Below, piece after piece: positions 7,356 through 12,193 of a DNA stretch of 12,193 nt. The notes beneath the pieces were generated by a model. It was not told the origin of the DNA. It made no database searches and saw only the letters and a program-made list of their open reading frames with translations. Every line of letters starts with the position of its first letter. The first letter of the stretch is position 1. The position numbers and the translations under genes are program-made. The DNA comes from Candidatus Aenigmatarchaeota archaeon (lineage in GTDB: Archaea; Aenigmatarchaeota; Aenigmatarchaeia; Aenigmatarchaeales; JACQIB01): assembly GCA_038999215.1 (NCBI GenBank), contig JAWABM010000005.1:4295-16487 (forward strand), given 5' to 3'.

Positions 7356-7469
7356 GGCTGGGATGGTGTAGCCTGGCAACATGCGGGCCTGTGGGGCACT
7401 TTTTGTGCAATCCACGAAAAGGCGCGCAGAAAGCCTAAGTCCCGGGTTCAAATCCCGGTCCCGGCCCCA
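7356..7469 (+). tRNA. tRNA-His(GTG) with encoded G-1, encoded CCA and a 37/38 intron
   Basis: G7356 is G-1 opposite C73 (7466). Acceptor GCTGGGA/TCCCGGC, anticodon GTG at 7391-7393, T arm CCGGG-TTCAAAT-CCCGG, CCA at 7467-7469. Confidence 0.93.
7395..7431 (+). other. 37-nt tRNA intron at position 37/38 with bulge-helix-bulge motif
   Basis: CUGU (32-35) pairs with intron GCAG (7426-7429). The 3-nt bulges are GG^G and AA^A. The outer intron helix includes TTTT/AAAA. Confidence 0.88.
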
Positions 7470-11412: not shown

Positions 11413-11460
11413 TCAAAACGATTCGCTTTCCCGGCTAATAAAAGTTACGGCGATTGCCAT

Positions 11461-11475
11461 GAAAAGCTTTAAATA
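11461..11475 (+). promoter_or_regulatory. rRNA promoter (BRE + TATA)
   Basis: GAAAAGC-TTTAAATA is near the archaeal consensus and lies about 255 nt upstream of the 16S 5' end. Confidence 0.8.
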
Positions 11476-11499
11476 GGTTAAAATAACGTAATTGTATAA

Positions 11500-11729
11500 C
11501 AGGTAAGAATTCGTTTCTTACCGCGGGGGAAGTAACATGGCGCCGCTGTGTTACGTTCTTGCGGTCACGGAAGTGCCCGCGGTATCGGCTTGGCTCGAGC
11601 TCAGCCATGAGGCTGCTATGACAGGCCAGTTTCCAGTCCCCCGTTCAGGTGAAGGCAAAACATTGCGCTTTTGTCCGATGTTGGCGAGTCGGTGAAACTC
11701 CGAGAAAGGGGAAATTGTGTTTTTCCGCA
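11500..11729 (+). other. Structured 5' external transcribed spacer of pre-16S rRNA
   Basis: Hairpins include GGTAAGAA/TTCTTACC (11502-11522), GTAACATGGC/GCTGTGTTAC and GGCAAAA/TTTTGTC. Confidence 0.7.
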
Positions 11730-11866
11730 ATTCCGGTTGATCCTGCCGGAGATCACCGCTATCGGATTCCGACTTAACCATGCGAGGCGAGAGGTGCAAG
11801 ACCTCGCCGTACTGCTGAGTAACACGTGGTTAACCTGCCCTTGGGTGGGGAATAATCTCGCGAAAG
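11730..11866 (+). rRNA. rrs: Archaeal 16S rRNA, 5' exon
   Basis: ATTCCGGTTGATCCTGCCGGA...CCATGC...AGTAACACGTGG..AACCTGCCC..GGGAATAATCTCGCGAAAG. Similarity to 16S stops at the helix-8 GAAA loop; the boundary is uncertain by a few nt. Confidence 0.95.
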
Positions 11867-11878
11867 ACAAACCGTACC

Positions 11879-11913
11879 TTTATATGTAATCTCATGTAGC
11901 TTGAGATTATATG
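11879..11913 (+). promoter_or_regulatory. Candidate internal TATA box and start-codon-sequestering hairpin
   Basis: TTTATA at 11879-11884. TATGTAATCTCA (11883-11894) pairs with TGAGATTATATG (11902-11913), which includes the ATG. Confidence 0.6.
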
Positions 11914-12193
11914 AAACCTGAATACTTGGCTGGATTTTTCGATGGTGAAGGGTCTTTGATTTTCAGACTTAGAAAAGACCCCAGATACAAAAATGGATAC
12001 CAAATAAAACCGCATTTGGACATCACGCAAAAAGATCCAGAGGTGCTAAAAATAATACAAAAAGAATTTGGTATGGGCAAACTCTATAAAAATAAGGATG
12101 GGACATTTCATCTGTGCGTATACAAGACTGATGACATTGTCAAATTCTTGAAAATTATAGAGAAACACAGTGTAGTGAAGAAAGTTAACATTA
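11911..12193 (+). CDS. LAGLIDADG homing endonuclease, I-CreI-like (3'-truncated by the window; not in the ORF track)
   Basis: Translated by hand: MKPEYLAGFFDGEGSLIFRLRKDPRYKNGYQIKPHLDITQKDPEVLKIIQKEFGMGKLYKNKDGTFHLCVYKTDDIVKFLKIIEKHSVVKKVNI. Shows the YLAGFFDGEG motif, ITQK, and G.G. Confidence 0.95.
   Translation, partial: MKPEYLAGFFDGEGSLIFRLRKDPRYKNGYQIKPHLDITQKDPEVLKIIQKEFGMGKLYKNKDGTFHLCVYKTDDIVKFLKIIEKHSVVKKVNI

Follow-up and report, generated by a model that had tools for sequence, protein, structure and literature searches.

The window, a stretch of 12,193 nucleotides from an Aenigmatarchaeota genome (G000, 571 kb, taken as that of an aenigmarchaeon), ends within a 16S rRNA gene whose helix 8 is interrupted by what its predicted fold identifies as a bulge-helix-bulge (BHB) intron of ~420 nt. 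We consider it probable that the bases at 11887-11909 in this intron are an operator lying in an internal promoter, to which a dimer of the intron's own LAGLIDADG endonuclease would bind without cutting, blocking transcription of its own gene. An earlier note on this DNA had read these bases as part of an RNA hairpin that hides the endonuclease AUG and is bypassed by an internal promoter; it missed that the two arms are copies of the endonuclease's own predicted homing half-sites, a likeness that points to the other control of phage I-TevI, autorepression at the DNA level. The features concerned are as follows (window coordinates unless a contig is given):

11459..11476, + strand: likely host rRNA promoter, a purine-rich BRE followed by TTTAAATA, read from the sequence
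11730..11864, + strand: 16S rRNA 5' exon (Rfam RF01959), ending in the helix 8 loop after RF01959 model position 138
11853..11861, + strand: left half-site of the 22-bp homing target as predicted by junction reconstruction (right half in the 3' exon, G000:C5:16579-16587)
11859..11865, + strand: 5' strand of the BHB, a 4-bp central helix CGCG plus a 3-nt bulge AAA (central helix pair probability 0.98-0.99)
11866..11873, + strand: 5' strand of the intron core stem, whose partner is the intron 3' end at G000:C5:16564-16571 (pair probability 1.0)
11879..11886, + strand: internal TATA box TTTATATG with a weak BRE; predicted start ~11907-11909
11883..11913, + strand: predicted 12-bp RNA hairpin over the AUG, from the fold and from compensatory differences in the nearest relative, L031
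11887..11909, no strand assigned: homing-site look-alike and candidate autorepression operator, 23 bp (9+5+9)
11911..12193, + strand: 5' part of the single-motif LAGLIDADG gene (PF00961, E 4.6e-13)

The intron and its endonuclease gene

The 16S gene is broken after position 11864, which we take to lie near E. coli 16S position 161, by 419 assembled bases that include a 10-N scaffold gap just beyond the window end. Contigs that derive from intron-less relatives, found in RNA and DNA sequencing runs, omit exactly this 419-bp insert (three of the four runs examined); since one of the skipping runs is a DNA run, they fix the boundaries of the insert and do not demonstrate splicing. In each of 24 sequencing runs the fraction of words present is <=0.19; the four runs examined do not cover the intron, show neither a start site nor splicing, and leave unclosed the 10-N gap, where homology predicts about 15 nt.

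The 5' splice site is predicted between 11864 and 11865, and the BHB is made of a CGCG/CGCG central helix and two AAA bulges; in 18 of the 19 same-site introns considered below the central helix has all four pairs, and in L035 it has three. The adjoining core stem has 11 uninterrupted pairs, G-U included, in the window's intron (3-18 across the helix-8 introns), and the exon helix directly outside the 3' bulge is absent from the predicted fold, a relaxed motif compared with the canonical hBHBh'. The genome encodes two adjacent PF01974 (EndA-type) genes and RtcB, and the host's EndA and RtcB would be the enzymes that splice the intron. These two splicing-endonuclease genes lie side by side at G000:C9:9371-10395 and encode proteins of 162 and 178 aa, so the enzyme may be heteromeric. 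A group I intron was rejected, as Rfam gave no intron match in the part of the insert inside the window (all but its final ~90 nt). A transposon signature was also rejected: the flanking 7-bp direct and 8-bp inverted repeats that might suggest one are the BHB helix, bulges and core stem.

The LAGLIDADG frame occupies nearly all of the 419 nt. It runs past the 10-N gap, after which its homology continues, crosses the 3' splice site and ends at a stop codon that lies 18 nt inside the 3' exon. Homologs of 133 aa are 51-77% identical; as a protein query the window's 94-aa piece returned six homologs, without context. A structure model of the relative L031 (pLDDT 91) has an alpha-beta-beta-alpha-beta-beta-alpha fold with one LAGLIDADG motif, and the C-terminal tail encoded by the exon is predicted to be disordered. 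All 15 gap-free intact helix-8 frames end in the 3' exon, at +2, +8, +18 or +22; the genes of L116, L221 and L222 are broken, and the window's frame is interrupted by the scaffold gap. In the usual picture, which comes from I-DmoI, an archaeal intron endonuclease is translated from the excised circle. Here read-through of the circles would add tails of 1-30 residues, and this variation, set beside the shared use of an exon stop, speaks for our reading; because the exon-encoded tail is predicted to be disordered, a circle-encoded tail might serve equally well, which counts against it. The circles of L035 and L037 have no stop: both introns are 432 long, with no in-frame stop, so that the excised circle would be an endless reading frame. 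An in-frame ATG is absent from the usual place in L035, L040, L111, L115, L220 and L222, where the starts are TTG, GTG or possibly ATA/ATT. In L036 and L037 the ATG is shifted into the element, whose 3' arm is thereby coding.

Several other features of the locus were seen in passing. The rRNA leader of ~250 nt (window 11477-11729) contains several inverted repeats, and the 23S gene does not adjoin the 16S gene but lies on contig C6. A second insert in the same 16S gene, a ~45-nt hairpin at G000:C5 ~17104-17150 (near 16S position 722), is at or near a known mini-intron locus (16S ~722). At window positions 7357-7466 Rfam finds a 110-nt tRNA match, which ARAGORN does not find and which probably carries an intron in the anticodon loop.

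The internal TATA box and copies of the homing site

Does the gene have a promoter of its own inside the intron? TTTATA is at 11879-11884, where the earlier note had placed it, with its first base 32 nt upstream of the ATG. The note's further statement that the spacing resembles that of leaderless host genes needs a correction: in the host leaderless peak the first TATA base is 28-30 nt before the ATG (44 matches at -30..-28; a simple script had called the ORFs, of which 318 are operon-first-like), and there is a second TATA group at 36-41 and SD motifs at 8-13. A TATA box at 32 nt would instead give a 2-4-nt leader, with a start at ~11907-11909, and not a strictly leaderless mRNA. With a matrix built from 66 host promoters, the 8-mer TTTATATG scores 7.2 (host median 6.7) and its BRE side scores -1.8, which is under the host 10th percentile of -1.3. 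The leaders of the 19 same-site introns are enriched in TATA-like boxes (mean best score 5.11 versus 2.82+-0.64 when shuffled, with 0 of 300 shuffles reaching it; the mean in 112 ORF-body windows is 2.01), and this enrichment supports the predicted internal promoter.

The 19 distinct introns share the helix-8 site and the protein family, with duplicates of a locus counted once. They were drawn from 80 metagenome loci, kept of 225 confirmed, from 77 genome loci and from searches of 371, 401, 301 and 401 genomes, where the wider genome searches added members in 1 of 401, 4 of 301 and 1 of 401 genomes; LAGLIDADG loci that on visual inspection looked like group I introns, inteins or genes standing free were left out of the counts. 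The target predicted from their junctions is a 9+4+9 pseudo-palindrome centred on the insertion site, with the centre GAAA; it is 22 bp in 17 of the introns and 24 bp in the other two (L040 and L222), whose hosts have a helix 8 that is 2 nt longer on the 5' side and whose leader copy is still 22 bp.

At 11887-11909 all 16 scored arm positions carry a base of the intron's own half-sites, and the next best site in the genome has 14 of 16; the element is the best own-target match of 1,141,646 position-by-spacer combinations in the 571-kb genome. When the matrix for the whole family is used, the joint second-best match in the genome is G000:C15:5643-5664, which overlaps the TATA region of a tRNA-adjacent gene and is possibly an off-target binding site or a chance match.

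A matrix made from the exon half-sites alone was then scanned over the 19 leaders for inverted pairs at 21 spacings. Such pairs peak at the target spacing (z 6.7) and at that spacing plus one (z 7.9), with side peaks of z 4.5-4.6 at spacings 17-18. Individually significant copies (p <= 0.03) are present in 11 of the 19 leaders, all of them between the TATA box and the start, at the start codon; the other eight introns have no significant copy, and six of these eight have intact frames. The centre of a copy is never that of the target, being 5 bp in 7 of the 11 (the window included) and a changed 4 bp in the other 4. Among the 22 arms of the 11 positives A is present at +-10 in all and C at +-7 in 20, and the bases at +-9 are also kept, so the bases that are nearly invariant in the targets are retained in the copies as bases, beyond mere pairing. 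The copies also follow the helix-8 variant of their own host when compared with permuted hosts (p 0.012-0.019, n=11; p 0.007-0.012, n=9, without the near kin L031 and L222), a comparison in which helix-8 kin among the positives are not independent. Tracking of the right half-site was not significant in either arm (5' arm, p 0.80; 3' arm, p 0.08).

Is this arrangement peculiar to helix 8? A PF00961 search of 221 Thermoprotei-class genomes found seven BHB introns at 23S L1927, counted as six because L239 nearly duplicates L238; a re-search of 236 genomes added no further L1927 introns. Their proteins are of the I-Vdi141I family (E 1.2e-39). According to the available part of PMC2602781, I-Vdi141I is a homodimeric archaeal rRNA-intron LAGLIDADG enzyme whose pseudo-palindromic target is known experimentally and whose cleavage is intolerant of change at +-2 and -1. 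In four of the six introns a TATA-like box is followed immediately by a 22-bp copy of the intron's own target, which differs from that at helix 8 (p 0.002-0.008), and these copies give z 8.6 at the exact target spacing; a significant copy is absent from L232 and L238. When the matrices of the two families were swapped, each family's own matrix gave high values (z 8.6 and 6.3-8.8) and the other family's gave z <= 1.4, with side peaks in this two-family test of z 5.3 at spacing 2 and 5.7 at spacing 12. The four copies retain 10, 9, 7 and 10 of the 10 symmetric positions +-3,6,7,9,10 and alter three or four of the central four bases. Of their outer changes, 13 of 20 are on the best-tolerated list in that part of PMC2602781, a count to be read with the fact that most changes on that list increase symmetry, so that any palindrome of half-sites tends to match it. 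The copies in L231 and L236 have two arms that each correspond to the 3'-exon half.

These comparisons bear on the notion that the element is a neutral relic: an old duplication of the junction, corrected in part by palindrome-perfecting mutation and now without a role, the protein being made from the excised circle with the purine-rich arm as a weak SD. The absence of the element from 8 of the 19 introns and its retention beside the broken gene of L222 fit such a history, as do the anti-SD duplexes that many relatives can form (-5 to -6 kcal/mol; -10.7 in L114) and the stop present in most circles. Against it, the arms are 59% and 70% identical among the 11 positives, against 34-72% (median 45%) for the proteins and 39% for third codon positions; since these positives were picked with the pooled matrix, the later counts on them lean toward the operator idea. 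The same layout in the unrelated L1927 family with another target, and the tracking of host variants, also speak against a relic, and we regard it as distinctly improbable.

The hairpin over the start codon

The hairpin itself was found as the earlier note had drawn it: 11883-11894 pairs with 11902-11913 through 10 Watson-Crick and 2 G-U pairs around a 7-nt loop, and the AUG (11911-11913) is buried as its last three paired bases. The fold of 11871-11920 has -11.8 kcal/mol (z -4.7), and 0 of 200 shuffles are as stable. The note was also right that no SD is evident; the window's leader, hairpin stem included, forms an anti-SD duplex of only -2.8 kcal/mol. It had allowed that the arms might instead pair with the intron 3' end in a long intron stem; this pairing was rejected, because in the fold the 3' end takes 11866-11873 at probability 1.0 and the hairpin forms beside the core stem (terminal pair probability 0.66, the other 11 pairs 0.95-1.0). 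The predicted probability that the AUG is unpaired is 0.00-0.19 in the precursor and the excised intron and 0.88-0.98 in a transcript from 11909. The note's proposal of a silent precursor and an active short mRNA agrees with the folding of this intron and is not supported as a general mechanism of helix-8 introns: of the TATA-plus-hairpin arrangement that it suggested looking for in relatives, the TATA-like boxes are enriched, and only 5 of the 19 same-site introns form a local hairpin that is strong (z <= -4).

How far can the hairpin explain the element by itself? If the note's model is taken alone, selection acts on the element as an RNA hairpin, which conceals the AUG and which the internal promoter bypasses; its resemblance to the homing site would be left over from an origin by copying of helix 8. 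The five introns with a strong hairpin (the window's, L188, and L031, L040, L112 and L222; z -4.1 to -5.5) fall in three places of the protein tree, the predicted open and closed states of the AUG fit the model, and phage T4 offers a precedent (PMC2988022, in the part available). L031 differs from the window symmetrically in the two arms in spite of an identical target, and L112 has a perfect 10-bp hairpin with no match to the half-site matrix; these two cases favour selection on the palindrome as such. Fourteen of the 19 introns lack a strong hairpin, on the other hand, and the arms of the 11 clear-element introns make 70 Watson-Crick and 6 G-U pairs with 23 mismatches, an excess of mismatched over G-U pairs that tells against the model, as does the lack of flipped bases at conserved positions, the outer A included. 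These pairs were counted by a script on 11 of the 19 introns, since a MAFFT alignment of the 19 leaders left the arms out of register. The arms keep a constant spacing of 6-7 in leaders that otherwise differ in length, and folding of the L1927 copies is moderate (z -0.9 to -2.9). We think it unlikely that the RNA hairpin alone accounts for the element. L031, L040, L112 and L222 suggest that some lineages use the hairpin too, or that mutation perfected their palindromes.

A different RNA pairing was also considered, in which, in the nascent pre-rRNA, the start-proximal arm would pair with the helix 8 strand that lies in the 5' exon and so mask the start until the BHB forms. Duplexes of -7.8 to -13.3 kcal/mol are possible in 9 of the 19 introns, several of them without a local hairpin, and the 3' arm best matches the left exon half (68/88, p 0.036). 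In the window, however, this pairing has a probability of 0.00 against the local hairpin, and in most members the addition of the exon barely alters accessibility. It leaves the conserved 5' arm unexplained, and pairing with the 5' exon cannot account for the L231 and L236 copies, whose arms are of the 3'-exon half. This explanation appears very improbable.

The proposed autorepression and its relation to known systems

On the operator reading, a short transcript would start at ~11907-11909 and use the stop codon in the 3' exon, and we propose that it stays unspliced because the 5' half of the BHB is missing from it. Repressors that are bound between the TATA box and the start, for example archaeal LrpA and MDR1, exclude RNA polymerase. 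The endonuclease dimer, sitting on the copy over the start site, would do the same, and cleavage of its own gene would be prevented by the extra central base pair in the window's element and by the changed central four bases in relatives. Because the operator is a palindrome, it would in this intron fold as RNA as well, and the fold would silence the AUG in the pre-rRNA and the excised intron as a second, optional layer; such added silencing by the hairpin in the window's intron is plausible whether the element was selected as operator or as hairpin. More broadly, archaeal rRNA introns may repeatedly have made LAGLIDADG homodimers into autorepressors by means of a TATA box and an uncuttable, host-tracking copy of the target, sometimes, as in this intron, with an RNA lock, a generalization to which we give slightly less than even weight.

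The weak step of the operator reading is binding, and the literature on altered centres points both ways. In the available parts of these papers, LAGLIDADG enzymes are described as making few direct contacts at the centre, with binding selections lax there (PMC5388424), and their specificity as being enforced in both catalysis and affinity (PMC6007267); three uncleavable I-CreI centres gave no detectable binding either (PMC3413129). Our literature search found no source for a LAGLIDADG dimer binding a site that is one base pair longer, and the 5-bp centre of the window's element may hinder binding. The weak BRE, the eight helix-8 and two L1927 introns without a significant copy, and the side peaks at other spacings also count against the reading.

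The closest known parallel is I-TevI, encoded in the phage T4 td group I intron, where a copy of the homing site without the requirements for cleavage overlaps the intron-internal promoter and serves as operator (PMC2988022, PMC3943268), and where a hairpin additionally silences long transcripts (PMC2988022; available parts of both papers). The putative helix-8 operator likewise overlaps the predicted promoter and resembles the homing site, so that in both cases a target copy lies at the internal promoter of the endonuclease gene together with a hairpin, here a predicted one. I-TevI differs in being a monomeric GIY-YIG enzyme of a group I intron with a phage late promoter, for which the same sources report binding and repression as demonstrated; the helix-8 element belongs to a single-motif LAGLIDADG gene in a BHB rRNA intron with a predicted archaeal TATA promoter, and its putative operator and predicted hairpin are one palindrome. 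By its predicted parts the helix-8 system would work like I-TevI autorepression and is not a member of it, being LAGLIDADG and not GIY-YIG. Hairpins of the T4 type sequester the RBS of I-TevI/II/III, segB and Aeh1 mobE (PMC2988022, available part); here too long transcripts are predicted to have a paired start region, which an internal start would release, with the differences that the window's hairpin has no SD and that a strong hairpin is found in only those five of the 19 introns.

BHB introns with such LAGLIDADG genes are already known. The helix-8 introns resemble the HEG-containing archaeal 16S BHB introns of Jay and Inskeep 2015 (PMC4496867) in their BHB junction, core stem, LAGLIDADG frame and ORF-less short versions at the same site, and differ in position, helix 8 being a 16S intron site additional to the 13 loci (374-1391) catalogued in the available part of that paper, which mentions no promoter or operator. 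Hosts of helix-8 introns include Aenigmatarchaeota, Micrarchaeaceae, a record labelled Parvarchaeota, and Desulfurococcaceae. With I-Vdi141I and the 23S L1927 BHB introns (PMC2602781, available part) the likeness is in the layout of TATA box, target copy and start seen in relatives, and the difference is in the site and in the protein, which is distant (E 3.3e-8 to L031); 'promoter', 'operator' and 'repress' have 0 occurrences in the main text of that paper. Promoters are likewise not mentioned in the available parts of PMC6125680 and PMC11270868, and our literature search, which mostly did not reach subscription journals, found no report of a LAGLIDADG operator or autorepression, nor any of archaeal rRNA introns with a promoter of their own.

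For endonuclease genes buried in rRNA, feedback control of an internal promoter would offer an alternative to translation from the circle. If the operator reading is true, it shows a way for a nuclease fold to turn into a regulator of transcription, and the copies are natural meganuclease sites that are bound and not cut, including the geometry that is longer by one base pair. The protein family of I-Vdi141I has already been crystallised.

Three ORF-less mini-introns with BHB junctions were also seen at the helix-8 site, L009 (G040), L029 (G024) and L224 (G004), of which L009 looks like a deletion remnant that retains a TATA-like stretch. The L224 record, G004:C2 ~203180-203905, also holds a ~730-nt insert near 16S 65-73 (helix 6 region) that encodes a LAGLIDADG-like protein with two motifs; this site, too, is missing from the 13-locus catalogue as given in the available part of PMC4496867. 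Finally, many 23S introns near helix 69 (L193-L217 and L227-L229) look like group I introns and have LAGLIDADG genes, and some of these loci hold two.
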